Below, piece by piece: positions 1 through 54,813 of a DNA stretch of 64,000 bases; within the stretch, counting starts at the first letter, position 1, and every line of letters starts with the position of its first letter. Below the pieces are notes generated by a model. That model worked only from the letters and a program-made list of their open reading frames with translations, was not told the DNA's origin and made no database searches. Both the position numbers and the translations under genes were made by a program. Source of the stretch: Escherichia coli (GTDB lineage Bacteria; Pseudomonadota; Gammaproteobacteria; Enterobacterales; Enterobacteriaceae); the NCBI RefSeq assembly GCF_003334785.1, contig NZ_QOWV01000001.1; one strand, written 5' to 3'.

Positions 1-147
1 GCGGTTAGCGTCATCAATCATCCTTTTGCGCTGGGCGTACAGTGGCACCCGGAATGGAACAGTAGCGAGTACGCGCTTTCGCGTATATTGTTCGAGGGCT
101 TTATCACCGCTTGTCAGCACCATATCGCTGAAAAACAGCGACTCTGA
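1..147 (+). CDS. puuD: gamma-glutamyl-GABA hydrolase, C-terminal fragment (gene continues upstream of window)
   Basis: Frame-1 ORF running in from the window edge, TGA at 145-147; tail ...FALGVQWHPEWNSSEYALSRILFEGFITACQHHIAEKQRL; sits directly upstream of puuR as in the puu cluster. Confidence 0.7.
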   Translation, partial: AVSVINHPFALGVQWHPEWNSSEYALSRILFEGFITACQHHIAEKQRL

Positions 148-173
148 CCACTACAGTTTAAGGAAATGCAAAT

Positions 174-731
174 ATGAGTGATGAGGGACTGGCGCCAGGA
201 AAACGCTTGTCGGAAATCCGCCAGCAGCAGGGGCTTTCACAACGTCGTGCCGCCGAACTCTCCGGGCTGACTCACAGTGCTATCAGTACGATAGAACAAG
301 ATAAAGTCAGCCCTGCCATCAGTACGCTGCAAAAGCTGCTGAAGGTGTATGGTCTGTCACTCTCGGAATTCTTTTCCGAGCCGGAAAAACCTGATGAGCC
401 GCAGGTCGTCATTAATCAGGACGACTTAATTGAGATGGGTAGTCAGGGTGTGTCAATGAAGCTGGTTCATAACGGTAACCCGAATCGCACGCTGGCGATG
501 ATCTTTGAAACGTACCAGCCGGGCACAACCACTGGGGAAAGAATTAAGCATCAGGGTGAGGAAATAGGCACTGTACTGGAAGGTGAAATTGTTCTGACGA
601 TTAATGGTCAGGATTACCACCTCGTCGCGGGGCAAAGTTATGCCATTAATACCGGCATCCCGCACAGTTTCAGTAATACGTCGGCAGGTATTTGCCGAAT
701 TATCAGCGCCCATACGCCCACCACGTTTTAA
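174..731 (+). CDS. puuR: HTH (XRE) plus cupin transcriptional repressor of putrescine utilisation
   Basis: 185 aa ORF; N-terminal HTH (LSQRRAAELSGLTHSAISTIEQ) and C-terminal cupin; synteny with puuC/B/E. Confidence 0.9.
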   Translation: MSDEGLAPGKRLSEIRQQQGLSQRRAAELSGLTHSAISTIEQDKVSPAISTLQKLLKVYGLSLSEFFSEPEKPDEPQVVINQDDLIEMGSQGVSMKLVHNGNPNRTLAMIFETYQPGTTTGERIKHQGEEIGTVLEGEIVLTINGQDYHLVAGQSYAINTGIPHSFSNTSAGICRIISAHTPTTF

Positions 732-1005
732 TCTTTTTGTTCTGTAAGCCGGGTAAGCGCAATGCGCCCGGCAATCTATACACAAAATCATTCAAGTTGC
801 ATCAAGGCGGCAAGTGAGCGAATCCCGATGAGCTTACTCAGGTAAGTGATTCGGGGGAGCGAACGCAGCCAAGGCAGAGGCGGCTTGAAGGATGAAGTGT
901 ATATAAAGAATGTCGCCAGAAATAAACGGGCATACGGCCCGGGGATCTCTGCGCCCTGACGTTCACAAACTGCATATATCTGATAGACGTGAAACAGGAG
1001 TCATA

Positions 1006-2493
1006 ATGAATTTTCATCATCTGGCTTACTGGCAGGATAAAGCGTTAAGTCTCGCCATTGAAAACCGCTTATTTATTAACGGTGAATATACTGCTGCGGC
1101 GGAAAATGAAACCTTTGAAACCGTTGATCCGGTCACCCAGGCACCGCTGGCGAAAATTGCCCGCGGCAAGAGCGTCGATATCGACCGTGCGATGAGCGCA
1201 GCACGCGGCGTATTTGAACGCGGCGACTGGTCACTCTCTTCTCCGGCTAAACGTAAAGCGGTACTGAATAAACTCGCCGATTTAATGGAAGCCCACGCCG
1301 AAGAGCTGGCACTGCTGGAAACTCTCGACACCGGCAAACCGATTCGTCACAGTCTGCGTGATGATATTCCCGGCGCGGCGCGCGCCATTCGCTGGTACGC
1401 CGAAGCGATCGACAAAGTGTATGGCGAAGTGGCGACCACCAGTAGCCATGAGCTGGCGATGATCGTGCGTGAACCGGTCGGCGTGATTGCCGCCATCGTG
1501 CCGTGGAACTTCCCGCTGTTGCTGACTTGCTGGAAACTCGGCCCGGCGCTGGCGGCGGGAAACAGCGTGATTCTAAAACCGTCTGAAAAATCACCGCTCA
1601 GTGCGATTCGTCTCGCGGGGCTGGCGAAAGAAGCAGGCTTGCCGGATGGTGTGTTGAACGTGGTGACGGGTTTTGGTCATGAAGCCGGGCAGGCGCTGTC
1701 GCGTCATAACGATATCGACGCCATTGCCTTTACCGGTTCAACCCGTACCGGGAAACAGCTGCTGAAAGATGCGGGCGACAGCAACATGAAACGCGTCTGG
1801 CTGGAAGCGGGCGGCAAAAGCGCCAACATCGTTTTCGCTGACTGCCCGGATTTGCAACAGGCGGCAAGCGCCACCGCAGCAGGCATTTTCTACAACCAGG
1901 GACAGGTGTGCATCGCCGGAACGCGCCTGTTGCTGGAAGAGAGCATCGCCGATGAATTCTTAGCCCTGTTAAAACAGCAGGCGCAAAACTGGCAGCCGGG
2001 CCATCCACTTGATCCCGCAACCACCATGGGCACCTTAATCGACTGCGCCCACGCCGACTCGGTCCATAGCTTTATTCGGGAAGGCGAAAGCAAAGGGCAA
2101 CTGTTGTTGGATGGCCGTAACGCCGGGCTGGCTGCCGCCATCGGCCCGACCATCTTTGTGGATGTGGACCCGAATGCGTCCTTAAGTCGCGAAGAGATTT
2201 TCGGTCCGGTGCTGGTGGTCACGCGTTTCACATCAGAAGAACAGGCGCTACAGCTTGCCAACGACAGCCAGTACGGCCTTGGCGCGGCGGTATGGACGCG
2301 CGACCTCTCCCGCGCGCACCGCATGAGCCGACGCCTGAAAGCCGGTTCCGTCTTCGTCAATAACTACAACGACGGCGATATGACCGTGCCGTTTGGCGGC
2401 TATAAGCAGAGCGGCAACGGTCGCGACAAATCCCTGCATGCCCTTGAAAAATTCACTGAACTGAAAACCATCTGGATAAGCCTGGAGGCCTGA
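1006..2493 (+). CDS. puuC: gamma-glutamyl-gamma-aminobutyraldehyde dehydrogenase (NAD-dependent aldehyde dehydrogenase)
   Basis: ORF track 910..2493; likely start ATG 1006 (MNFHHLAYWQ) preceded by AGGAG; aldehyde dehydrogenase family, 495 aa. Confidence 0.9.
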   Translation: MNFHHLAYWQDKALSLAIENRLFINGEYTAAAENETFETVDPVTQAPLAKIARGKSVDIDRAMSAARGVFERGDWSLSSPAKRKAVLNKLADLMEAHAEELALLETLDTGKPIRHSLRDDIPGAARAIRWYAEAIDKVYGEVATTSSHELAMIVREPVGVIAAIVPWNFPLLLTCWKLGPALAAGNSVILKPSEKSPLSAIRLAGLAKEAGLPDGVLNVVTGFGHEAGQALSRHNDIDAIAFTGSTRTGKQLLKDAGDSNMKRVWLEAGGKSANIVFADCPDLQQAASATAAGIFYNQGQVCIAGTRLLLEESIADEFLALLKQQAQNWQPGHPLDPATTMGTLIDCAHADSVHSFIREGESKGQLLLDGRNAGLAAAIGPTIFVDVDPNASLSREEIFGPVLVVTRFTSEEQALQLANDSQYGLGAAVWTRDLSRAHRMSRRLKAGSVFVNNYNDGDMTVPFGGYKQSGNGRDKSLHALEKFTELKTIWISLEA

Positions 2494-2494
2494 A

Positions 2495-3775
2495 ATGACC
2501 GAACATACCAGCAGTTACTACGCCGCCAGTGCGAATAAATATGCACCATTCGACACGCTGAATGAGTCAATCACCTGCGACGTTTGCGTGGTTGGCGGCG
2601 GCTATACCGGGCTCTCCTCCGCGCTGCATCTGGCGGAAGCGGGCTTTGACGTAGTGGTTCTCGAAGCCTCACGCATCGGCTTTGGCGCAAGCGGGCGCAA
2701 TGGCGGACAGCTTGTGAACTCCTACAGCCGCGACATCGACGTGATCGAAAAAAGCTACGGCATGGACACCGCCCGTATGCTCGGCAGCATGATGTTCGAA
2801 GGTGGTGAGATCATCCGCGAACGTATCAAACGTTATCAGATTGACTGCGACTACCGCCCCGGCGGCCTGTTTGTGGCGATGAATGATAAACAGCTCGCCA
2901 CACTTGAAGAGCAGAAAGAGAACTGGGAACGCTACGGCAATAAACAGCTGGAATTGCTGGACGCCAACGCCATTCGCCGTGAAGTAGCCAGCGATCGCTA
3001 TACCGGTGCGCTGCTTGATCACAGCGGTGGGCATATTCATCCGCTAAACCTTGCCATTGGCGAAGCGGACGCCATCCGCCTCAACGGCGGGCGCGTGTAT
3101 GAACTTTCTGCCGTGACGCAGATCCAGCACACCACGCCAGCCGTTGTGCGAACTGCCAAAGGTCAGGTGACGGCGAAGTATGTGATTGTCGCCGGGAATG
3201 CGTATCTGGGCGATAAAGTAGAGCCGGAACTGGCGAAACGCAGCATGCCGTGCGGCACGCAGGTGATCACCACCGAACGGCTGTCGGAAGATTTAGCCCG
3301 TTCGCTGATCCCGAAAAACTACTGTGTGGAAGACTGTAACTATCTGCTTGATTACTACCGTCTTACCGCCGACAACCGCCTGCTGTACGGCGGCGGCGTG
3401 GTCTACGGCGCGCGCGACCCGGATGACGTTGAGCGCCTTGTGGTGCCGAAACTGCTGAAAACCTTCCCGCAGCTGAAGGGCGTGAAAATTGATTACCGCT
3501 GGACGGGCAACTTCCTGCTGACCCTGTCGCGTATGCCGCAGTTTGGTCGCCTCGATACCAACATCTATTACATGCAGGGCTACAGCGGCCACGGCGTGAC
3601 CTGTACTCATCTAGCCGGACGTTTGATTGCCGAACTGCTGCGCGGCGACGCCGAACGTTTCGATGCCTTCGCCAATCTGCCGCATTACCCGTTCCCCGGC
3701 GGGCGCACGCTGCGTGTGCCGTTTACCGCGATGGGCGCGGCGTATTACAGCCTGCGCGATCGTCTGGGCGTTTAA
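2495..3775 (+). CDS. puuB: gamma-glutamylputrescine oxidase (FAD-dependent)
   Basis: 426 aa ORF with N-terminal FAD dinucleotide fold VCVVGGGYTGLSSAL; start 2 nt after puuC stop. Confidence 0.9.
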   Translation: MTEHTSSYYAASANKYAPFDTLNESITCDVCVVGGGYTGLSSALHLAEAGFDVVVLEASRIGFGASGRNGGQLVNSYSRDIDVIEKSYGMDTARMLGSMMFEGGEIIRERIKRYQIDCDYRPGGLFVAMNDKQLATLEEQKENWERYGNKQLELLDANAIRREVASDRYTGALLDHSGGHIHPLNLAIGEADAIRLNGGRVYELSAVTQIQHTTPAVVRTAKGQVTAKYVIVAGNAYLGDKVEPELAKRSMPCGTQVITTERLSEDLARSLIPKNYCVEDCNYLLDYYRLTADNRLLYGGGVVYGARDPDDVERLVVPKLLKTFPQLKGVKIDYRWTGNFLLTLSRMPQFGRLDTNIYYMQGYSGHGVTCTHLAGRLIAELLRGDAERFDAFANLPHYPFPGGRTLRVPFTAMGAAYYSLRDRLGV

Positions 3776-5197: not shown

Positions 5198-6175
5198 CTA
5201 AATCTGGTGCTTTTTCAACAACGCGCGGAACTGATGATAAGTTAACCCCAGTAATTCAGCCGCGCGCTTCTGGTTATATTTCCCTTGTTGCAAACTGAGT
5301 TGCAGCAACTCTTTTTCCTGCTGCATCTGAAACTCACGTAAATCCAGCGGCAGTGTTGGAAGCGAGGTGGTTTCTGAAACGGCGATAGCGTCTTCAGGCG
5401 GACGCCGTTTAAAGGGATCAATAATGATGTCATCAAGCGGATAATCGCTGGTGCCGTGGCGATACACTGAACGTTCCACCACGTTTTTCAATTCACGAAT
5501 ATTTCCCGGCCAACGATAATTCAGCAATGTTTCTCTGGCGCGCTCCGTAAACCCCGGGAACAGAGGCAGCTTGATTTCCCGACACATCTGGATGGCAAAG
5601 TATTCTGCCATCAACATTATGTCGCTTTCGCGCTCGCGCAGTGGTGGCAGTTGTACAACATCAAAAGCCAGTCGGTCGAGCAGGTCAGCGCGAAAAGTGC
5701 CTTCATTGACCATCGCCGGGAGATCGGCATTCGTCGCGCATACCAACCGCACATTCACCTGCAATGGCTGGCTGCCGCCAACGCGCTCCAGTTCACCGTA
5801 CTCAATCACGCGCAATAATTTCTCCTGCACCATCATCGGTGCCGTAGCGAGTTCATCAAGAAATAGCGTACCGCCGTCGGCACGTTCAAATCTCCCTGGA
5901 TGACGTTTTTGCGCACCGGTAAACGCCCCCGCTTCGTGACCAAACAGTTCGGAATCCAGCAGATTTTCATTTAACGCCGCGCAGTTAAGGGAAATAAACG
6001 GCCCTTGCCAACGGGAGGAGAGATAATGCAGGCGGCTGGCAATCAGCTCTTTACCGGTGCCGCGTTCGCCGATGATGAGCACCGGTTTGTCCAGCGGTGC
6101 GAGATGCGAAACCTGTTCCAGCACTTCGAGAAAGCTGTTCGCCTCACCAAGTAAATTATCTTTGTATTCTGCCAT
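5198..6175 (-). CDS. pspF: sigma54-dependent enhancer-binding activator of the psp operon
   Basis: ORF track 5198..6190; AAA+ sigma54-activator core (GERGTGKELIA, GAFTGA) and C-terminal HTH; start taken at MAEYKDN (6175). Confidence 0.9.
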   Translation of the reverse strand: MAEYKDNLLGEANSFLEVLEQVSHLAPLDKPVLIIGERGTGKELIASRLHYLSSRWQGPFISLNCAALNENLLDSELFGHEAGAFTGAQKRHPGRFERADGGTLFLDELATAPMMVQEKLLRVIEYGELERVGGSQPLQVNVRLVCATNADLPAMVNEGTFRADLLDRLAFDVVQLPPLRERESDIMLMAEYFAIQMCREIKLPLFPGFTERARETLLNYRWPGNIRELKNVVERSVYRHGTSDYPLDDIIIDPFKRRPPEDAIAVSETTSLPTLPLDLREFQMQQEKELLQLSLQQGKYNQKRAAELLGLTYHQFRALLKKHQI

Positions 6176-6269
6176 GATGAAATTCGCCACTTGTTAGTGT
6201 AATTCGCTAACTCATCCTGGCATGTTGCTGTTGATTCTTCAATCAGATCTTTATAAATCAAAAAGATAA

Positions 6270-7010
<741 letters not shown>

Positions 7011-7063
7011 TAACATCCAGGCGGCGTCCGAACGCGCCGCCGCTCATCGTCTAAGGAGTACTT

Positions 7064-7288
7064 ATGAGCGCGCTATTTCTGGCTATTCCGTTAACCATTT
7101 TTGTGCTGTTTGTTTTACCGATCTGGTTATGGCTGCATTACAGCAATCGTTCTGGTCGCAGTGAATTGTCGCAAAGTGAGCAGCAGCGATTAGCGCAACT
7201 GGCTGATGAAGCAAAACGGATGCGCGAACGTATTCAGGCGCTGGAATCTATTCTTGATGCAGAACATCCGAACTGGAGGGATCGCTAA
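7064..7288 (+). CDS. pspB: phage shock protein B
   Basis: 74 aa ORF with N-terminal TM helix; stop overlaps pspC start (TAATG). Confidence 0.9.
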   Translation: MSALFLAIPLTIFVLFVLPIWLWLHYSNRSGRSELSQSEQQRLAQLADEAKRMRERIQALESILDAEHPNWRDR

Positions 7289-7647
7289 TGGCGGGCATTA
7301 ATCTCAATAAAAAATTATGGCGTATTCCACAGCAGGGCATGGTCCGCGGCGTCTGCGCCGGGATTGCCAACTATTTTGATGTACCGGTAAAACTGGTGCG
7401 TATCCTGGTGGTGCTGTCGATTTTCTTCGGTCTGGCGCTGTTTACCCTGGTTGCTTACATCATTTTGTCATTTGCGCTTGATCCAATGCCGGACAACATG
7501 GCCTTTGGTGAGCAGCTACCTTCCAGCAGCGAATTGCTGGATGAAGTCGACCGTGAACTGGCGGCAAGTGAAACGCGTTTACGCGAGATGGAACGTTATG
7601 TCACTTCCGATACTTTCACGTTACGTAGCCGTTTCCGTCAACTGTGA
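7288..7647 (+). CDS. pspC: phage shock protein C
   Basis: 119 aa membrane ORF translationally coupled to pspB. Confidence 0.9.
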
Positions 7648-7655
7648 GGAAAGTT

Positions 7656-7877
7656 ATGAATACTCGCTGGCAACAGGCCGGGCAAAAGGTAAAGCCTGGT
7701 TTCAAATTAGCAGGCAAGCTGGTACTTCTTACCGCACTGCGCTATGGCCCGGCGGGTGTGGCGGGCTGGGCGATAAAATCAGTTGCTCGCCGACCGCTGA
7801 AAATGTTGCTGGCTGTGGCGCTGGAACCGCTGTTAAGTCGGGCTGCTAATAAACTGGCACAGCGTTATAAAAGGTGA
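7656..7877 (+). CDS. pspD: phage shock protein D
   Basis: ORF track 7644..7877; start taken at MNTRWQQ (73 aa). Confidence 0.8.
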
Positions 7878-7951
7878 GGGGAGTTTCGCAAAAATTGTTA
7901 AATCTCAGGCGTATAATGGATGGCAATTTTCATCCATAGAAGGACGCTTAC

Positions 7952-8266
7952 ATGTTTAAAAAAGGCTTACTTGCTCTGGCACTGGTGTTTTCACTGCCCG
8001 TTTTCGCCGCTGAACACTGGATCGATGTTCGTGTTCCAGAGCAGTATCAGCAAGAGCACGTTCAGGGGGCCATCAATATTCCCCTGAAGGAAGTGAAAGA
8101 GCGCATTGCCACCGCCGTTCCGGATAAAAACGACACCGTGAAAGTGTATTGCAATGCCGGACGCCAGTCAGGGCAAGCAAAAGAGATCCTTAGCGAGATG
8201 GGATATACCCACGTTGAGAACGCCGGTGGCCTGAAAGACATCGCAATGCCGAAGGTCAAAGGTTAA
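7952..8266 (+). CDS. pspE: periplasmic rhodanese (thiosulfate sulfurtransferase)
   Basis: 104 aa ORF with signal peptide and rhodanese active-site Cys (YCNAGRQS). Confidence 0.9.
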   Translation: MFKKGLLALALVFSLPVFAAEHWIDVRVPEQYQQEHVQGAINIPLKEVKERIATAVPDKNDTVKVYCNAGRQSGQAKEILSEMGYTHVENAGGLKDIAMPKVKG

Positions 8267-8282
8267 AAGAATTCACCATGAG

Positions 8283-8307
8283 CGGCGCTTATGCGCCGTT
8301 TTTTTTT
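8283..8307 (+). terminator. rho-independent terminator after pspE
   Basis: GC stem cggcgc/gcgccg with ttat loop followed by a run of 9 T. Confidence 0.75.
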
Positions 8308-43651: not shown

Positions 43652-44884
43652 TTATGCCGCCAGCACGCGGTTGCGTCCATCATTTTTCGCCCGATACAAA
43701 GCATCATCAACGCGTTTAAACAGTTCATCGATGCTTTCATTTCCTTCGTGATGCGCCACACCAATGCTGACGGTAAAGCGTGGTAAGCCCGAAATACTCA
43801 CTTTTGCCACGCTTACGCGGATAGTTTCAGCCAGCGAAAGCGCGGTATCCAGTGGGGTTCTTGGTAGCAATAAGACAAACTCTTCGCCTCCCCAACGAAA
43901 CACCAAATCGCCTTTGCGAGCGCAACTTTCGAGGGTGCGGGCGAGGGCGCATAACACCTCATCACCTTTAGAATGCCCATAGAGATCGTTAATGTGTTTA
44001 AAACGATCGGTGTCGATGAGCAACAAGCTGTAATCCTGAGCGATGGCGAGATGCTGCATTTGGCCTGGTTCCGTAATGTGATAAAACTGTCGCCGATTCA
44101 GTAATCCGGTCATCGCGTCATGGTGAGCAGCATGTTCCAGCTGCTCCTCCAGCCGTTTTTGCTCAGTAATATCATGCACAATACATAACATGAGCTTGTC
44201 GCCATAAATTTCAATCGGTCCGGCATAGGTCTGCACATGACGAGTCGAACCATCCGCCAGTTTATGAACAAAATTCAAAGGTTTATGACCACCGGGTAAA
44301 TGCGAGATTTCATGCATGATAGGCATGACGCGACGCCCGAGCATATTTATTTCCCAGGTATGTTTCTGGCACATCGTTTCATGGTTATAACCATAGAAAT
44401 TGAGCGCGGCGAGGTTAGCATCGACGATTTGTCCATCTCGTGACGGGTCAATCAACAACATTGGTGCAGAGTTAGTCAGAAAAAAGCGCGCATAAAAACC
44501 TTGTTTTTTGCGCTGATAATTTGCCGAGCGACTGGCTTTTAAACCCAGCGTTGCCGGCGCTTCGATACCTTCGAAAATAATCACCGGTTCTGTTTCTGTC
44601 AGCTTTCGCAAAACAAGCCGACAGCTCAATGCTGTTTCCTCTTCTTTACGCTGAACAGTGAGGATTTCGATAATATCGTGTTGGTTTTGCAGATCGGAGA
44701 GGTATTTCGGCAGTTCTTTTTGTGAGGAGACGGAATAGGGTCCGGTTCGTAGCTGACTAAACGTGAGGTCTTGCATCAACAGTTTCGCCGCGCTATTGGC
44801 ATAAATTAACTGTTCCTCAAAGGGCGAAACGATCCAGACAGGACTGGTGAGTAAGTCCAGGGTATTGAAGTTGTGCGTAATCAT
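43652..44884 (-). CDS. dgcM: PAS-GGDEF diguanylate cyclase
   Basis: ORF track 43652..44944; start taken at MITHNFNTL; GGEEF active-site motif present (RWGGEEFVLLL). Confidence 0.8.
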   Translation of the reverse strand: MITHNFNTLDLLTSPVWIVSPFEEQLIYANSAAKLLMQDLTFSQLRTGPYSVSSQKELPKYLSDLQNQHDIIEILTVQRKEEETALSCRLVLRKLTETEPVIIFEGIEAPATLGLKASRSANYQRKKQGFYARFFLTNSAPMLLIDPSRDGQIVDANLAALNFYGYNHETMCQKHTWEINMLGRRVMPIMHEISHLPGGHKPLNFVHKLADGSTRHVQTYAGPIEIYGDKLMLCIVHDITEQKRLEEQLEHAAHHDAMTGLLNRRQFYHITEPGQMQHLAIAQDYSLLLIDTDRFKHINDLYGHSKGDEVLCALARTLESCARKGDLVFRWGGEEFVLLLPRTPLDTALSLAETIRVSVAKVSISGLPRFTVSIGVAHHEGNESIDELFKRVDDALYRAKNDGRNRVLAA

Positions 44885-45117
44885 TGAGATCCCGTTATTT
44901 TTATCAATTTTTGTTGCTATCCGATCGCAAAAAAGCCACGTCATATGATCAGATAATTCTGATAATGATAGACGCTATTTAACACTTCACACGGTTTGTA
45001 TACGGAAAAGCATTTTGCTTTTTGTATTCAATTTAGACAGAATTTTATTAATCATTTCAGGGTAATGGGGTGATGAGATGTTGCGTAACAGGGCCAGAAG
45101 GCTAGACTACAAAATAA

Positions 45118-46122
<1,005 letters not shown>

Positions 46123-46168
46123 CAAAAGCAATTTTTCCGGCTGTCTGTATACAAAAACGCCGCAAAGT

Positions 46169-46182
46169 TTGAGCGAAGTCAA
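46169..46182. promoter_or_regulatory. FNR box centred about -42 of FnrS
   Basis: TTGAG-CGAA-GTCAA (consensus TTGAT-N4-ATCAA), 35 nt upstream of the FnrS 5' end; class II activation spacing. Confidence 0.65.
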
Positions 46183-46217
46183 TAAACTCTCTACCCATTC
46201 AGGGCAATATCTCTCTT

Positions 46218-46339
46218 GCAGGTGAATGCAACGTCAAGCGATGGGCGTTGCGCTCCATATTGTCTTACTTCCTTTTTTGAATTACTGCATAGCACAATTG
46301 ATTCGTACGACGCCGACTTTGATGAGTCGGCTTTTTTTT
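46218..46339 (+). ncRNA. fnrS: FNR-activated small RNA FnrS
   Basis: GCAGGTGAATGCAACGTCAAGCGATGGGCGTTGCGCTCCATATTGTC...GACGCCGACTTTGATGAGTCGGCTTTTTTTT recognised from memory; terminal hairpin plus U8. Confidence 0.8.
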
Positions 46340-46396
46340 GCCTGTTATTTATCAGCGTCTACCCTTTAAGAGTCCACCCAATGACCAGAGGGAAAT

Positions 46397-46570
46397 ATGA
46401 CGACACTTATTTATTTGCAAATTCCTGTCCCTGAACCGATTCCTGGCGATCCTGTTCCAGTGCCCGATCCGATCCCTCGCCCGCAACCCATGCCTGACCC
46501 ACCACCCGATGAAGAACCGATTAAATTGTCGCATCGTGAGCGTAGATCTGCGAGGATACGCGCCTGCTAA
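46397..46570 (+). CDS. 57-aa proline-rich small protein (absent from ORF track because under 60 aa)
   Basis: ATG at 46397 with GAGGGAAAT RBS-like spacer; encodes MTTLIYLQIPVPEPIPGDPVPVPDPIPRPQPMPDPPPDEEPIKLSHRERRSARIRAC; stop TAA 46568-46570; may correspond to the small gene ynaL, name not verified. Confidence 0.5.
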   Translation: MTTLIYLQIPVPEPIPGDPVPVPDPIPRPQPMPDPPPDEEPIKLSHRERRSARIRAC

Positions 46571-46599
46571 CTTTGCGTCGATGACCACGAGAATAGATT

Positions 46600-47973
46600 G
46601 TGACCGCTTTTTCTACCCTGAATGTTTTGCCTCCCGCCCAACTCACGAACCTTAATGAGTTGGGTTATTTAACCATGACGCCGGTGCAGGCCGCCGCGCT
46701 TCCGGCGATCCTTGCCGGAAAAGATGTTCGCGTGCAGGCGAAAACCGGCAGCGGCAAAACGGCGGCTTTTGGCCTCGGCTTGTTACAGCAAATTGATGCG
46801 TCGCTATTTCAAACCCAGGCTTTAGTGCTGTGTCCTACGCGTGAACTGGCGGATCAGGTGGCAGGTGAATTGCGTCGGCTGGCGCGTTTTCTGCCAAATA
46901 CCAAAATTTTGACGTTGTGCGGTGGTCAACCGTTCGGTATGCAGCGTGATTCGTTGCAACATGCGCCGCATATTATCGTGGCAACGCCGGGGCGTTTGCT
47001 GGATCACCTGCAAAAAGGCACGGTATCACTGGATGCGTTGAATACGCTGGTGATGGATGAGGCCGACCGCATGCTGGATATGGGATTTAGCGATGCCATT
47101 GATGATGTCATCCGTTTTGCGCCTGCATCTCGACAGACGCTTCTGTTTTCGGCAACCTGGCCGGAAGCCATCGCTGCAATCAGCGGACGAGTGCAACGCG
47201 ATCCTTTGGCGATTGAAATTGACTCAACAGATGCTTTGCCACCCATTGAACAACAATTTTATGAGACATCCAGCAAAGGCAAAATTCCTCTGTTGCAACG
47301 GTTATTAAGCTTGCATCAGCCATCCTCTTGCGTGGTGTTTTGCAATACCAAAAAAGATTGCCAGGCTGTCTGCGACGCGCTGAATGAAGTAGGGCAAAGT
47401 GCATTGTCATTACACGGCGATTTGGAGCAACGCGATCGCGATCAGACCCTGGTACGTTTTGCTAACGGTAGCGCCCGTGTACTGGTCGCGACTGATGTTG
47501 CTGCGCGTGGTCTGGATATTAAATCGCTTGAGCTGGTGGTGAACTTTGAGCTGGCGTGGGACCCTGAAGTTCATGTACATCGCATCGGTCGTACAGCTCG
47601 TGCAGGAAATAGCGGTCTGGCGATCAGTTTCTGTGCTCCGGAAGAAGCACAGCGGGCCAATATCATTTCTGACATGTTGCAGATAAAACTTAACTGGCAA
47701 ACGCCGCCAGCTAATAGTTCCATTGCGACGCTGGAAGCAGAAATGGCAACGTTGTGTATCGATGGCGGGAAAAAAGCCAAAATGCGCCCGGGTGATGTAT
47801 TAGGTGCACTGACAGGAGATATCGGGCTTGATGGCGCAGATATTGGCAAAATCGCCGTGCATCCGGCGCATGTCTATGTCGCGGTCCGTCAGGCTGTTGC
47901 TCATAAAGCATGGAAACAGTTACAGGGCGGGAAGATTAAAGGAAAAACGTGCCGGGTGCGGTTATTAAAATAA
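46600..47973 (+). CDS. dbpA: DEAD-box ATP-dependent RNA helicase (23S rRNA hairpin 92-specific)
   Basis: 457 aa ORF with GTG start; motifs GSGKT, DEAD, SAT, HRIGRTAR. Confidence 0.9.
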   Translation: MTAFSTLNVLPPAQLTNLNELGYLTMTPVQAAALPAILAGKDVRVQAKTGSGKTAAFGLGLLQQIDASLFQTQALVLCPTRELADQVAGELRRLARFLPNTKILTLCGGQPFGMQRDSLQHAPHIIVATPGRLLDHLQKGTVSLDALNTLVMDEADRMLDMGFSDAIDDVIRFAPASRQTLLFSATWPEAIAAISGRVQRDPLAIEIDSTDALPPIEQQFYETSSKGKIPLLQRLLSLHQPSSCVVFCNTKKDCQAVCDALNEVGQSALSLHGDLEQRDRDQTLVRFANGSARVLVATDVAARGLDIKSLELVVNFELAWDPEVHVHRIGRTARAGNSGLAISFCAPEEAQRANIISDMLQIKLNWQTPPANSSIATLEAEMATLCIDGGKKAKMRPGDVLGALTGDIGLDGADIGKIAVHPAHVYVAVRQAVAHKAWKQLQGGKIKGKTCRVRLLK

Positions 47974-48018
47974 TGAAATGTTGAATTGCCGGGTGCAAGA
48001 GTAAACATCTTATTCGGG

Positions 48019-48096
48019 ATTGCCGGATGCGACGCTGGCCGCGTCTTATCCGGCCTCCATAAGAGTAGCCCGATACGCTTGCGCATCGGGCGCTAT
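48019..48096. repeat. REP-type extragenic palindromic repeats
   Basis: tgccggatgcgacgctggccgcgtcttatccggcctcc ... gtagcccgatacgcttgcgcatcgggcgc between convergent dbpA and ttcA. Confidence 0.7.
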
Positions 48097-48101
48097 CCTG
48101 G

Positions 48102-49037
48102 TTATTTCACTTCAACCACATTCAGCCGTAACTCATCCAACTGATTTTCATCTTCTTCTGGCTGCCAGCACGCCGGTTGTAGTGGGATCTCTTCGCGATC
48201 AAACGCCAGATCACCCCCGTTAACCACTTCAGAACCGTGGGTGATGCCTTTGAAATCGAACAGGTTGGTATCGCACAGATGCGACGGCACCACATTCTGC
48301 ATCGCGCTGAACATCGTCTCGATACGCCCTGGATAACGTTTATCCCAGTCACGCAACATGTCAGCAATCACCTGACGTTGCAGGTTAGGCTGTGAACCGC
48401 ACAGGTTGCACGGAATAATCGGGAACGCTTTTGCATCGGCAAATCGCTGAATATCTTTCTCGCGGCAGTAGGCCAGCGGACGAATAACGATATGTTTGCC
48501 ATCATCGCTCATCAGTTTCGGAGGCATACCTTTCATCTTACCGCCGTAGAACATATTTAAGAACAACGTTTGCAGGATATCGTCACGATGGTGACCCAAC
48601 GCGATCTTCGTCGCCCCCAGTTCCGTTGCGGTACGATAAAGGATACCGCGACGAAGGCGAGAACACAGTGAGCAAGTGGTTTTGCCCTCTGGAATCTTCT
48701 CTTTCACGATACCGTAAGTATTCTCTTCAACAATCTTGTACTCAACGCCCAGCTTTTCAAGATACTCGGGCAGAACGTGTTCCGGGAAGCCCGGTTGCTT
48801 TTGATCGAGGTTAACAGCCACCAGCGAAAAATTGATTGGCGCGCTTTGCTGCAAATTGCGCAGAATCTCCAGCATGGTATAGCTGTCTTTACCCCCGGAG
48901 AGGCAAACCATGATGCGATCGCCTTCTTCAATCATATTGAAGTCAGCAATGGCTTCGCCCACGTTACGACGCAGACGTTTTTGTAATTTGTTCAGGTTGT
49001 ATTGTTCTTTCTTACTAATTTCTTGATTTTGCGACAT
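48102..49037 (-). CDS. ttcA: tRNA 2-thiocytidine(32) synthetase (PP-loop ATPase)
   Basis: 311 aa ORF with PP-loop SGGKDS and Fe-S CxxC motifs. Confidence 0.9.
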
Positions 49038-49213
49038 TTAAAAGCGACTCAATTCGTTATATGGCATCAGAAGAGTATGCGTCATGCCGGAACGCCCAGC
49101 ATAAGAAATCTGATATAAAAAACTGTGGCGTGTATGGTACGGATTAGAGGGGAAAATGTCAGCACATTTGCGAAATGAATCAAAAAGCCCGCAGCAATGT
49201 GCGGGCGTTAGTG

Positions 49214-49729
<516 letters not shown>

Positions 49730-49752
49730 TTAGATCAAAGGAGGAAGAATAA

Positions 49753-49780
49753 GCAGAAAAAGCCCGCCATAACAGCGGGC
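49753..49780 (-). terminator. rho-independent terminator after ompN
   Basis: On the minus strand: stem gcccgc/gcgggc followed by TTTTTCTGCTT, immediately past the ompN stop. Confidence 0.65.
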
Positions 49781-49788
49781 AGGAGGAT

Positions 49789-50922
49789 TTAGAACTGATA
49801 AACCAGACCTAAAGCGACAATATCATCGGTAGAGATGCCATTGGCAGCGTAGAAGCTGTCATCTTCATCCAACAGGTTGATTTTATAGTCAACGTAGGTG
49901 GACATGTTTTTATTGAAATAGTAAGTCGCGCCAATATCGGCGTATTTAACCAGATCTTTATCATCAACACCTGCCGGGTTGTCTGCACCACCCGCAGCGT
50001 GCAGGTCACGGCCTTTAGACATCAGGAAAGAGACTGCCGGACGCAGACCAAAATCAAACTGGTACTGTGCAGTGACTTCAAAATTCTGGGTTTTGTTTGC
50101 CACAGCATAATCGCTGTCGCCAAACGGGGTCATATTACGCGTTTCTGAATACATGGTTGCCAGGTAAATATTGTTAGCATCGTATTTTAGCCCAGCAGTC
50201 CACGCGTCTGCTTTATCACCACCCGCCGCAGTATGGTTAACCTGGTCATTGGTGCGGTCAGAAGAGGTGTATGCCGCACCAGCGCTAAAGCCCATGCCTA
50301 AATCATATGTTGTGGAAAGACCCCAGCCGTCACCGTTTTCATGGCGAACATCACGTCCGTTGTTGGTGCCTTCCTGACCATTACTGGCTCCTTCGTTGTT
50401 ACCTTGATACTGCACCGCGAAGTTCAGACCATTTACCAGACCGAAGAAATCAGTATTACGATAAGTCGCGACGCCATTGGCTCGACCAGTCATAAAGTTG
50501 TCTGCATTGGTATAAGAGTCACCGCCAAATTCAGGCAGCATATCGGTCCAGCCTTCGATGTCGTACATTACGCCATAATTACGTCCGTAATCGAAAGAAC
50601 CGTAATCTGCAAATTTCAGCCCGGCAAATGCCAGACGGGTCCATGACTGGTTTTTTGAAGATTCAGTGTTGTTTGCCTGAATATTGTATTCCCATTGCCC
50701 GTAGCCAGTGAGTTGATCGTTAATTTGGGTTTCGCCTTTAAAACCCAGACGCGCATAGCTCTGGTCGCCATCTTTCGCTGAATTATCAGAAAAATAATGC
50801 AGGCCATCAACTTTGCCATACAGATCTAATTTGTTGCCGTCTTTATTATAAACTTCGGCTGCATGTGCAGCACCTGCGGCGAGCAGGGCAGGAATTAAAA
50901 GTGCCAGTACTTTGCTTTTCAT
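49789..50922 (-). CDS. ompN: outer membrane porin N (OmpC/OmpF family)
   Basis: 377 aa ORF, signal peptide, C-terminal ...VYQF. Confidence 0.9.
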
Positions 50923-51149
50923 TGAATAAATCCTTTAGTTATTTTATTTGCCTTTTATCCCCATTTCGGGGAGTGAAAACATCCTAAAGGAGAAGTTCAG
51001 TTAGCCGATAAATATCATTTGTTACGCCTTAAGTAAAACCTTAATCAAATAATTCCTCTGAAATGATAATAAGTCTGGTGAATGTATCGAAGATAATACA
51101 TACAAAATAAAAATTATACTTTTAATTTGCTATACGTTATTCTGCGCGG

Positions 51150-51258
51150 GTTATATGCCTTTATTGTCACAGATTTTATTTTCTGTTGGGCCATTGCATT
51201 GCCACTGATTTTCCAACATATAAAAAGACAAGCCCGAACAGTCGTCCGGGCTTTTTTT
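51150..51258 (+). ncRNA. micC: small RNA MicC (ompC-targeting)
   Basis: GTTATATGCCTTTATTGTCACAGATTTTATTTTCTGTTGGGCC...AGCCCGAACAGTCGTCCGGGCTTTTTTT recognised from memory; terminal hairpin plus U-run; between ompN and pfo. Confidence 0.8.
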
Positions 51259-51288
51259 TTAGAATTGGATAATCCTTATCCAGAGCAT

Positions 51289-54200
51289 TTAATCGGTGTT
51301 GCTTTTTTCCGCTTTTCCGGCCATTTGTGCCAGGAAGTCATAGCGTTTTTGCAAATCAGCTGCAGCATCTTTCCATAACTGTTCTGCCACTTCTGGCTGC
51401 TGCGAATTCAGCCGACGGAAACGTTGCTCGTGAAGTAACGTTTCTTCCAGTGCTTCTGACGGCGGGCGTGAATCCAAGGCCAGCGGCAGTTTGCCTTCAT
51501 CGGCACGACGCGGATCAAAGCGATATAGCGGCCAGAAGCCGGTAGCTGTGAGTTGGCGCATCTGGTCGTGGCTGAGTGCCAGATCGTAACCATGCTCTTC
51601 ACACGGGCTATAAGCAATGATCAGCGATGGCCCCGGATACGCTTCCGCTTCCTGAATCGCTTTCACCGTCTGGTTCAGCTGCGCGCCGAGAGAAATCTGC
51701 GCCACATAAACATGACCGTACATCATCATACTGACGCCAAGATCTTTACGCGCTTTACGTTTGCCGTGCTCGCCAAATTTAGTTACTGCACCCAGCGGTG
51801 TCGCTTTCGACGCCTGACCACCGGTGTTGGAATAGCATTGCGTATCCAGCACCAGAATGTTGACGTTTTCCGTCAAACTCAATACATGATCCAGACCGCC
51901 AAAGCCGATATCGTAAGCCCAGCCATCACCACCAATCAGCCAGATTGATTTTTCCACCAGTGCATCTGCATCACGTAGCAGTTCATGTGCTTCGGCAACA
52001 TCGTTGAGTTGCTGGCGTAAAGCTGCAACCTGTTCACGACGAACCTCTGGCGTGGCGTCTGATTTCAACGCCGTCAGTAATTCCGCCGGGATTTTATCGG
52101 CAAATTGATCCAGCAGACGCAGCACGCGGACACGGTGTTGATCGACCGTCAGGCGGAAACCAAGGCCAAATTCGGCATTATCTTCAAATAGAGAGTTCGC
52201 CCATGCCGGCCCACGACCGTTGGCATCGGTGGTATACGGTGTAGAGGGCAGGTTACCGCCATAAATTGAAGAACAGCCAGTGGCGTTAGCGATCAACATC
52301 CGGTCGCCATAGAGCTGAGTCAGTAATTTAATATACGGCGTCTCGCCACAACCGGAGCAAGCACCTGAATATTCAAACAGCGGTGTAATCAGCTGCGATG
52401 TACGAATATCAATACGTTCCAGTTTGCTACGGTCGATTTCTGGCAGGTTGAGGAAGAAATCGTAATTGATTTTCTCTTCTTCGACATGTTCCAGGCGAGA
52501 CATCATATTGATGGCTTTAATCTCTGGATTCTGACGGTCTTTCGCCGGGCAAACTTCGACGCACAGGTTACAACCGGTGCAATCTTCCGGTGCCACCTGC
52601 AAGACATATTTCTGCCCGCGCATATCACGCGATTTCACATCCAGCGAATGCAGGCTGGCAGGGGCGTTTTCCATCGCTTCAGGCGGCACCACTTTTGCGC
52701 GAATAGCTGAGTGTGGGCAAGCGGCAACGCAGTGGTTACATTGGGTACAGAGTTCCTCTTTCAAGATGGGGATCTCTTCGGCGATATTGCGTTTTTCCCA
52801 GCGCGTAGTGCCCATCGGCCAGGTGCCGTCTGGCGGCAGCGCCGAAACGGGGAGGGCGTCACCAAGCCCGGCGAGCATCGCAGCGGTTACGGTTTTCACG
52901 AAATCAGGGGCGGCATCGGAAACCACTGGCGGTCGATTGGCGCTGTGCGGATTTACCGGTTGCAACGGAACTTCTTCTACGGATTCACGCGCCAGCGCCA
53001 GAGCCTGCCAGTTGCGTTCCACCAGATCCTGGCCTTTGCTACTGTAACTTTTGGCAATCGCACCCTGCAATTCTGCGAGGGCGCTATCGCCAGGCAGAAT
53101 TTGCGTCAGATGGAAAAAAGCCATCTGCATGACGGTATTAATACGGGCCGCCAGGCCACATTCGCGGGCGATTTTCGCCGCGTTAATCACATAGAAGCGC
53201 GCTTTTTTCTGGTTTAACACGGCCTGAACTTCTTGCGGCAAGCGCGACCACACTTCATCTGCGCTGTACGGCGTGTTGAGCAGGAAAATGCCGCCAGGTT
53301 TTAAACGCTCAGCCATCTGATATTTATCGATAAACTGCAACTGGTGGCAGCCAACAAAATCAGCCTGGGAAATGAGATAAGCGGAACGAATCGGCTGTTC
53401 GCTCACTCGAAGGTGAGAAACCGTCAGGCCGCCCGCCTTTTTGGAGTCGTAAACAAAATAGCCCTGTGCGTACCACGGCGTGGAATTACCGATAATCTTG
53501 ATATTGTTTTTGGTCGCGGAAACGCTGCCATCACTACCAAGGCCATAAAACAAGGCTTCCAGTTTCGCCGAGTTTGGCAGGGTGTTTTCCGGCAACGGCA
53601 GTGACAGATTGGTCACATCATCGTAAATACCAACCGTAAAGCGCGCTTTCGGTTTAGCCGCGTTGAGCTCGGCAAATACCGCCAGTACACAGTCTGGGCC
53701 AAATTCTTTGGATGAAAGACCATAGCGCCCACCAATGACACGGGGCAGAGTTTCGCGCTCGCCATTATTAAAGGCTTCTGCCAGTGCGGTCATTACATCC
53801 AGATAGAGCGGTTCTGCCTGGGCACCGGGTTCTTTGGTTCTGTCCAGTACCGCCACGCTGCGTACGGATCCCGGCAGAGCTTGCAGTAAATGTTTAGCGG
53901 AGAAGGGGCGGTACAGGCGAACTTTCAGCACGCCAACTTTTTCGCCACGGGTTAGCAATTCATCAACCACTTCTTCACAGGTGCCAATGGCAGAGCCCAT
54001 CAGGATAATCACCCGTTCCGCTTGCGGATGCCCGTAATATTCAAACGGCTGATACTGACGACCTGTCGCGGCAGAGAAATCATTCATCGCCTGTTCAACA
54101 TGGTCATAGACCGCGTTGTACCATGGGTTGGTGGCTTCGCGAGACTGGAAATAAGTGTCAGGATTGGCGGACGTACCGCGGATCACCGGATGTTCCGGGT

Positions 54201-54813
54201 TGAGTGCCCGGGCGCGATGAGCATCAATTTCGACCTGCGGCATGAGATCAAGAATCGTGTCATCGGCCAGCGGGACAATTTTATTGATTTCGTGGGACGT
54301 GCGGAAACCATCAAAGAAATGAATAAATGGCACGCGGCTTTTCAGCGTCGCGATTTGCGAAATGAGAGCAAAGTCTTGCGCTTCCTGGACGTTTGCTGCA
54401 CACAACATCGCGCAACCCGTCTGGCGCACCGCCATAACGTCGGAATGATCGCCAAAAATAGAGAGTGCATGTGTGGCAACGGTACGTGCCGCTACATGCA
54501 GGACAAACGGTGTTAGTTCGCCTGCCAGTTTGTACAGCGTCGGGATCATCAGCAGCAAACCCTGCGATGACGTAAACGATGTTGAAAGGGCACCCGTCTG
54601 CAAAGCGCCATGCACGGTAGCGATAGCACCCGCTTCCGACTGCATTTCAACCACGCGTGGTGTGTCTCCCCAAACGTTCTTTAAGCCGTTTCCGGCCCAG
54701 GCATCAGCCTGTTCTGCCATCGTGGAACTGGGGGTAATAGGGTAGATGGCGATAACTTCACTGGTGCGAAATGCGACCGAAGCAACCGCGCCATTACCGT
54801 CAATAGTAATCAT
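51289..54813 (-). CDS. pfo: pyruvate:flavodoxin/ferredoxin oxidoreductase
   Basis: 1174 aa ORF, single-chain PFOR with 4Fe-4S ferredoxin motifs (CxxCxxCxxxCP). Confidence 0.9.
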   Translation of the reverse strand: MITIDGNGAVASVAFRTSEVIAIYPITPSSTMAEQADAWAGNGLKNVWGDTPRVVEMQSEAGAIATVHGALQTGALSTSFTSSQGLLLMIPTLYKLAGELTPFVLHVAARTVATHALSIFGDHSDVMAVRQTGCAMLCAANVQEAQDFALISQIATLKSRVPFIHFFDGFRTSHEINKIVPLADDTILDLMPQVEIDAHRARALNPEHPVIRGTSANPDTYFQSREATNPWYNAVYDHVEQAMNDFSAATGRQYQPFEYYGHPQAERVIILMGSAIGTCEEVVDELLTRGEKVGVLKVRLYRPFSAKHLLQALPGSVRSVAVLDRTKEPGAQAEPLYLDVMTALAEAFNNGERETLPRVIGGRYGLSSKEFGPDCVLAVFAELNAAKPKARFTVGIYDDVTNLSLPLPENTLPNSAKLEALFYGLGSDGSVSATKNNIKIIGNSTPWYAQGYFVYDSKKAGGLTVSHLRVSEQPIRSAYLISQADFVGCHQLQFIDKYQMAERLKPGGIFLLNTPYSADEVWSRLPQEVQAVLNQKKARFYVINAAKIARECGLAARINTVMQMAFFHLTQILPGDSALAELQGAIAKSYSSKGQDLVERNWQALALARESVEEVPLQPVNPHSANRPPVVSDAAPDFVKTVTAAMLAGLGDALPVSALPPDGTWPMGTTRWEKRNIAEEIPILKEELCTQCNHCVAACPHSAIRAKVVPPEAMENAPASLHSLDVKSRDMRGQKYVLQVAPEDCTGCNLCVEVCPAKDRQNPEIKAINMMSRLEHVEEEKINYDFFLNLPEIDRSKLERIDIRTSQLITPLFEYSGACSGCGETPYIKLLTQLYGDRMLIANATGCSSIYGGNLPSTPYTTDANGRGPAWANSLFEDNAEFGLGFRLTVDQHRVRVLRLLDQFADKIPAELLTALKSDATPEVRREQVAALRQQLNDVAEAHELLRDADALVEKSIWLIGGDGWAYDIGFGGLDHVLSLTENVNILVLDTQCYSNTGGQASKATPLGAVTKFGEHGKRKARKDLGVSMMMYGHVYVAQISLGAQLNQTVKAIQEAEAYPGPSLIIAYSPCEEHGYDLALSHDQMRQLTATGFWPLYRFDPRRADEGKLPLALDSRPPSEALEETLLHEQRFRRLNSQQPEVAEQLWKDAAADLQKRYDFLAQMAGKAEKSNTD

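Follow-up and report, generated by a model that had tools for sequence, protein, structure and literature searches.

Gene layout of the ttcA-uspF interval

Within the window, by which we mean the whole 64-kb stretch of DNA analysed here, the interval of interest is bounded by two genes read from the minus strand. The first, ttcA (48102-49037), is an ORF of 311 codons for the tRNA 2-thiocytidine(32) synthetase. Its product scored 513.5 bits against the NCBIfam equivalog NF007972 (cut-off 272; residues 3-287 covered) and its translation carries, for this PP-loop ATPase, the SGGKDS PP-loop motif at residues 47-52. The second, uspF (49214-49648), encodes the 144-aa universal stress protein F, is collinear with K-12 uspF and scored 302.2 bits against the NCBIfam equivalog NF011581 (cut-off 166) over residues 1-144 of 144. 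We took the ATG at 49648 as the true start of uspF and rejected a 168-aa, GTG-started version of this ORF as an over-extension. An earlier, sequence-only reading of the window had described ttcA as a full 311-codon ORF with its own N-terminus, lying about 176 bp from the uspF stop; both statements are borne out, and the spacer at 49038-49213 measures exactly 176 bp.

The neighbours on both sides are those of K-12. To the left lies the RNA helicase gene dbpA (46600-47973, plus strand) and to the right the porin gene ompN (49789-50922, minus strand), both called as ORFs and collinear with their K-12 counterparts, followed by nifJ/ydbK (51289-54813, minus strand), which was taken from the ORF listing. 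The gene for the small RNA MicC occupies 51147-51267 between ompN and nifJ/ydbK, again as in K-12 (Rfam RF00121, 125 bits; gathering score 90). A REP-type palindromic element was found between dbpA and ttcA at 48017-48055, where the naRNA4 family scored below threshold on both strands (29 and 25 bits; gathering score 59.5). Two other ORFs overlapping the spacer and uspF, one of 66 aa with a GTG start (49038-49238, minus strand) and one of 100 aa (49175-49477, plus strand), were treated as spurious, no support having been found for either.

The spacer itself consists of the native upstream region of ttcA and the terminator of uspF. Eight bases past the uspF stop, on the minus strand at 49187-49206, the sequence GCCCGCACATTGCTGCGGGC is followed by TTTTTG and forms an intrinsic terminator with a 7-bp stem containing six G-C pairs and a T run. 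A candidate sigma-70 promoter for ttcA was located on the same strand at 49134-49162 (CTGACA, a 17-bp gap and TACCAT; 9 of 12 consensus matches), but this is a weak and unproven assignment of the promoter position: it was the one such site in the spacer, and the region scanned contained two sigma-70-like sites compared with 1.6 expected from shuffled sequence, a number that chance alone would give. When 47900-51400 was scanned with Rfam at E ≤ 1, the spacer matched no RNA family, and the rest of the scanned region gave only MicC and the sub-threshold naRNA4 matches.

The att core and its counterparts in K-12

According to the MG1655 annotation, the corresponding order in K-12 is dbpA, ttcA, 'cryptic prophage Rac' (1411899-1434958, with intR and xisR as its first genes), the pseudogene ttcC, uspF, ompN, micC and ydbK. 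This agrees with the statement, in the sequence-only reading, that Rac sits at the 5' end of ttcA in K-12 and parts it from uspF and ompN, and Liu et al. (2015; Sci Rep 5:16074; PMC4632033) likewise place Rac between ttcA and ttcC'. Using a three-way alignment of the window with the ttcA/intR (attL) and ynaM/ttcC (attR) junctions of K-12, we identified a 26-bp core, TTGTTCAGGTTGTATTGTTCTTTCTT, at 48988-49013, which is identical at 26 of 26 positions in the window, attL and attR. The core spans ttcA codons 9-16 and two bases of codon 17 (KKEQYNLNK), within the first codons of the gene, where an attB core had been proposed to lie. The flanks change partner exactly at its edges, the window matching attL on the left and attR on the right.

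These relationships extend well beyond the core. Megablast aligned window positions 44089-49030 to K-12 up to ttcA/attL and positions 48988-54029 to K-12 from ttcC/attR onward, each with >99.9% identity, and the overlap of the two alignments was confined to the core and the look-alike codons borne by the phage. There were zero differences from K-12 between the ttcA stop and the core (ttcA bases 48102-48987), and zero between the core and a point beyond uspF when compared with the ttcC/attR side; the spacer at 49038-49213 is identical base for base to the K-12 ttcC-uspF spacer. The junction is therefore composed of the left side of attL, the core and the right side of attR; its K-12 counterpart is the Rac insertion site and no other segment, and its sequence is the exact product expected of precise Rac excision from K-12.

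We searched the window for further copies of the core and, tolerating up to three mismatches, found only the one, and thus no att duplication; the core was absent from all of 100 shuffled sequences. The window is collinear with non-prophage K-12 DNA and holds K-12 backbone genes only; accordingly, no integrase, excisionase or phage genes were found between the flanks or anywhere within its 64 kb. The earlier statement that the window lacks an integrase, phage genes and an att-like duplication is borne out by this collinearity and by the single core. The psp genes at about 5200-8300 ('phage shock') form a stress operon of the host. Considered together, the sequence comparisons make it almost certain that the 5' end of ttcA contains, at 48988-49013, an attB for Rac-family lambdoid prophages in its natural, empty state, on a chromosome close to but distinct from K-12. 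Identity with the K-12 excision product also points to this core as a probable substrate for integration by IntR.

The state of the site can be read in the N-terminus of TtcA. Compared with K-12 TtcA, the window protein differs only at residues 2, 3, 6 and 8 (S/Q, Q/E, E/Q and S/T, window/K-12), all four within codons 1-8. Over window positions 48988-49037, which hold the first 50 bases of ttcA, the sequence is that of K-12 ttcC without a single change, and the first 17 residues of TtcA are the peptide that ttcC encodes. Because the differences are confined to codons 1-8 and the N-terminus is that of the ttcC peptide, the window protein is of the TtcA' form. In K-12, the native first eight codons (MSQNQEIS; 49014-49037 in the window, minus strand) are stranded at attR in pseudogene ttcC, and at attL they are replaced by phage-borne codons (MQENQQIT). 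The look-alike comprises 24 bp beyond the core, of which three of the first 17 bases differ (at 49014, 49015 and 49022) while the seven nearest the start codon are more strongly diverged. Judged from these alignments, ttcA in the window has retained the ancestral N-terminus together with the native upstream region, neither of them supplied by a phage. This matches previous work (PMC4632033), in which Rac excision altered four N-terminal residues of TtcA, the match between attL and attR being imperfect, and in which E. coli and Shigella without a rac-like prophage in ttcA had the N-terminus of the excision product TtcA'.

From the mechanism of IntR and XisR in the literature, Rac-type integration would proceed by recombination, catalysed by the tyrosine integrase IntR, between the phage attP core and the 26-bp bacterial core. 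The first eight ttcA codons and the native upstream region would be displaced to a position about 23 kb away, annotated as ttcC in K-12, and the phage would supply a near-identical replacement of eight codons, four of them changing the amino acid, together with new upstream DNA. Since the phage arm of attL carries the look-alike codons, ttcA would remain intact in lysogens. In the K-12 annotation, intR stops just 51 bp away from the start of ttcA, a spacing which suggests that integration may also swap the upstream control region of ttcA. In the window, integration would either never have happened or have been exactly reversed.

Empty and occupied sites in complete genomes

To place the window among other E. 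coli, we used a 501-bp query across the junction, which matched 5,411 of 5,426 complete E. coli genomes. The junction was contiguous in 2,483 of the 5,426 (about 46%). A second query, made of the K-12 core and intR, found Rac-type attL/integrase DNA in 2,919 of the 5,426 genomes; it was covered over at least 80% of its length, corresponding to a full-length intR, in 1,832 of these 2,919, and its matches adjoined ttcA in every case among the matches listed. The contiguous and Rac-type sets were each counted by a separate search, and their sum is close to 5,411.

Among genomes taken at even intervals from the ranking, those without a contiguous junction broke at one of two points, query base 139 (window position 48988, the left edge of the core) or base 293. 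One genome of each kind was inspected. In the first, O157:H7 ATCC 43888, the tail/effector region of a lambdoid prophage abuts uspF. O157:H7 is polymorphic at this site, being contiguous in FRIK944 and holding a prophage in ATCC 43888 and 380-94. In the second, the ST131 strain 4993 (L002, 3799-5984), as in ST131 and genomes like it, the ttcA site is taken up by a decayed remnant of ~2.2 kb, made up of an incomplete integrase, a piece of DUF1627 and a metal ABC permease with a frameshift. Its TtcA starts with the phage-type residues MQENQQIT, and a deletion has removed the attR side to about window position 49134, including the attR core and ~120 bp of the spacer. With the attR core deleted, the phage-type N-terminus is fixed in such remnants and excision is impossible. 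The remnant-type breakpoint was present in about 7 of 40 evenly sampled genomes. In one genome, that of strain TST3 (NZ_CP154406.1, 2558082-2559294), an IS200C element is inserted in an otherwise empty ttcA-uspF junction.

The individual states correspond closely to those already on record. For K-12 Rac, the attL, attR and ttcC sequences and the excised attB with TtcA' (PMC4632033) share with the window the core, the flanks, the four-residue difference in TtcA and the ttcC-uspF spacer; the empty state in that study was produced by excision in BW25113, whereas that of the window is natural and on a non-K-12 chromosome. The Rac-free strains of the same work (among them HS, IAI1, UMN026, E24377A, ATCC 8739 and O103:H2 12009) have ttcA beside uspF and the TtcA' N-terminus, as does the window, which shows no difference of substance from them and adds to their number from a local haplotype resembling that of K-12. 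The O157:H7 prophages Sp10 and CP-933R (PMC4632033) and the inducible phage Rac-SA53 (KU052037) use the same ttcA site but represent the occupied state. The GenBank record of Rac-SA53 annotates a 26-bp attP at the position homologous to the window core, and its core, TTGTTCAGGTTGTATATCTCTTTCTT, differs from that of the window by a few bases.

Relation to K-12 and history of the site

We compared the whole window with three MG1655 stretches by megablast. It is collinear throughout with K-12 positions 1361738-1449971, from within puuR to within tynA, at 99.89-99.97% identity. Two blocks are missing relative to MG1655, Rac and IS5F, and the remaining differences consist of 27 substitutions and three small indels, in ycjS, ycjV and ycjY. 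The earlier inference that the DNA does not come from a standard K-12 chromosome with Rac is thus correct. The site of IS5F, between ynaI and ynaJ in MG1655, is empty in the window, with its CTAA target present once (34328-34331). At 15394-15399, the ycjS A-run reads AAAA compared with AAAAA in K-12, and the ORF begins only at 15394 and encodes 251 aa compared with 351 aa; this 1-bp deletion may be genuine, making ycjS a frameshifted pseudogene, or may stem from a sequencing error in the homopolymer. ycjV is intact (360 aa, 19083-20165): compared with MG1655 it has one more G, at 20037, which undoes the frameshift behind the K-12 ycjV/ymjB pseudogenes. In ycjY, a 25-bp tandem duplication at 29440-29489 gives two copies of TTAAGGCTGCGCAAAGTAGCGTAAC compared with one in K-12 and splits the ORF into parts of 237 aa and 122 aa. 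The duplication allele is rare, occurring in 53 of 5,236 E. coli genomes at ≥99% identity, and thus serves as a marker of a sublineage.

The sequence-only reading had called this an uninterrupted arrangement and the site prophage-free. There is no interruption, but the same sequence would follow if the site had been restored by precise excision, and freedom from prophage is true of the site and the window but does not extend to the whole genome; in CFT073, a Rac-like element is reported to lie at another location (PMC4632033). The first point raises the question of whether a Rac-type prophage once occupied the site in this lineage and was removed precisely by IntR and XisR. Several observations are favorable to such a history, including flanks at least 99.9% identical to Rac-carrying K-12, a junction exactly as K-12 would yield on excision, and previous work showing that Rac is excision-proficient in K-12, with YdaQ/XisR as the excisionase (PMC4632033). 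In addition, genomes with the rare ycjY duplication, which lies 19.6 kb from the site, include both states. ML35 and FORC 064 are occupied, with intR, xisR, ralR and recT beside ttcA in both, whereas O157:H16 98-3133 is empty, and JKHS016, EH09-18-41, BS74R-D and VE-F10 combine the duplication with 100.0% matches across the empty junction. The near-K-12 local haplotype thus also occurs in occupied form, FORC 064 carrying a K-12-type Rac and ML35 a Rac-like prophage.

The presence of occupied and empty sites among genomes with the ycjY duplication indicates a recent switch between the two states on this local haplotype, whether through excision, integration or homologous exchange. Recent integration into an ancestrally empty site, or homologous replacement of such a site, could however give the same polymorphism. 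Site-specific excision is scarless, hence the sequence offers no positive evidence for it and is compatible with a site that was never occupied and with one that was excised alike; in comparison with K-12, no scar telling one from the other was seen between the ttcA stop, the core and beyond uspF, and none is expected. Overall, we regard a past excision in this lineage as a tenable minority view, somewhat short of an even chance. Rac-type elements are often termed multi-million-year-old 'fossil' prophages. A broader proposal, that they are still being gained and lost by site-specific recombination among near relatives of K-12 in nature and that the window is a recent product of precise excision, may be entertained only tentatively and is rather unlikely.

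A different explanation for the absence of Rac would be that the window derives from a laboratory K-12 derivative in which the prophage was cured or deleted, as in a delta-rac or reduced-genome strain. The very high identity to MG1655 over 64 kb would fit, as would the joint absence of Rac and an IS5 copy, which is seen in engineered strains free of IS elements and prophages. K-12 derivatives differ among themselves far less than the window does from MG1655, and the 27 substitutions, the intact ycjV, the 1-bp deletion in ycjS and the 25-bp duplication in ycjY all stand against an engineered origin. Window positions 40000-64000 are moreover identical over their full length (100.0%, rounded) to many wastewater or environmental, animal and clinical isolates, and the ycjY duplication is also carried by wild isolates. 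We consider an engineered delta-rac source very improbable and effectively refuted by the pattern of substitutions and indels together with the identity to wild isolates. The 27 substitutions, the three small indels and the missing IS5F mark the chromosome as other than a Rac-cured K-12 derivative, and on this sequence evidence it comes from a natural E. coli very closely related to K-12. Least credible of all, with a negligible chance of being correct, is a false junction made in assembly by collapse of the two att copies and loss of the prophage: an assembler might in principle be deceived by a repeat of 26 bp, but 26 bp is far shorter than reads, the same contiguous junction occurs in 2,483 independent complete genomes and it is documented in the literature (PMC4632033).

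Prophages that enter the end of a gene may carry a replacement for that end, as do phages integrating into tRNA genes and those with integrases of the P22/lambda family, and a look-alike at attP keeps the target intact. Compared with integration into tRNA genes, where the 3' end is replaced, the ttcA site involves replacement of the 5' end of a protein gene and its upstream region, and integration here would therefore change both the N-terminus of the protein and its transcriptional context.

An empty ttcA site is an ordinary and common state of E. coli that was already described in 2015 (PMC4632033), and our counts of 2,483 empty and 2,919 Rac-type among 5,426 complete genomes are a useful baseline as opposed to a discovery. 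The meaning of the window is mainly one of annotation, as a natural near-K-12 E. coli without Rac and IS5F whose core at 48988-49013 is, in all likelihood, an unoccupied attB. The state of the site nevertheless has a documented, if modest, phenotypic correlate, in that the fitness of TtcA and TtcA' differs under carbenicillin (PMC4632033).
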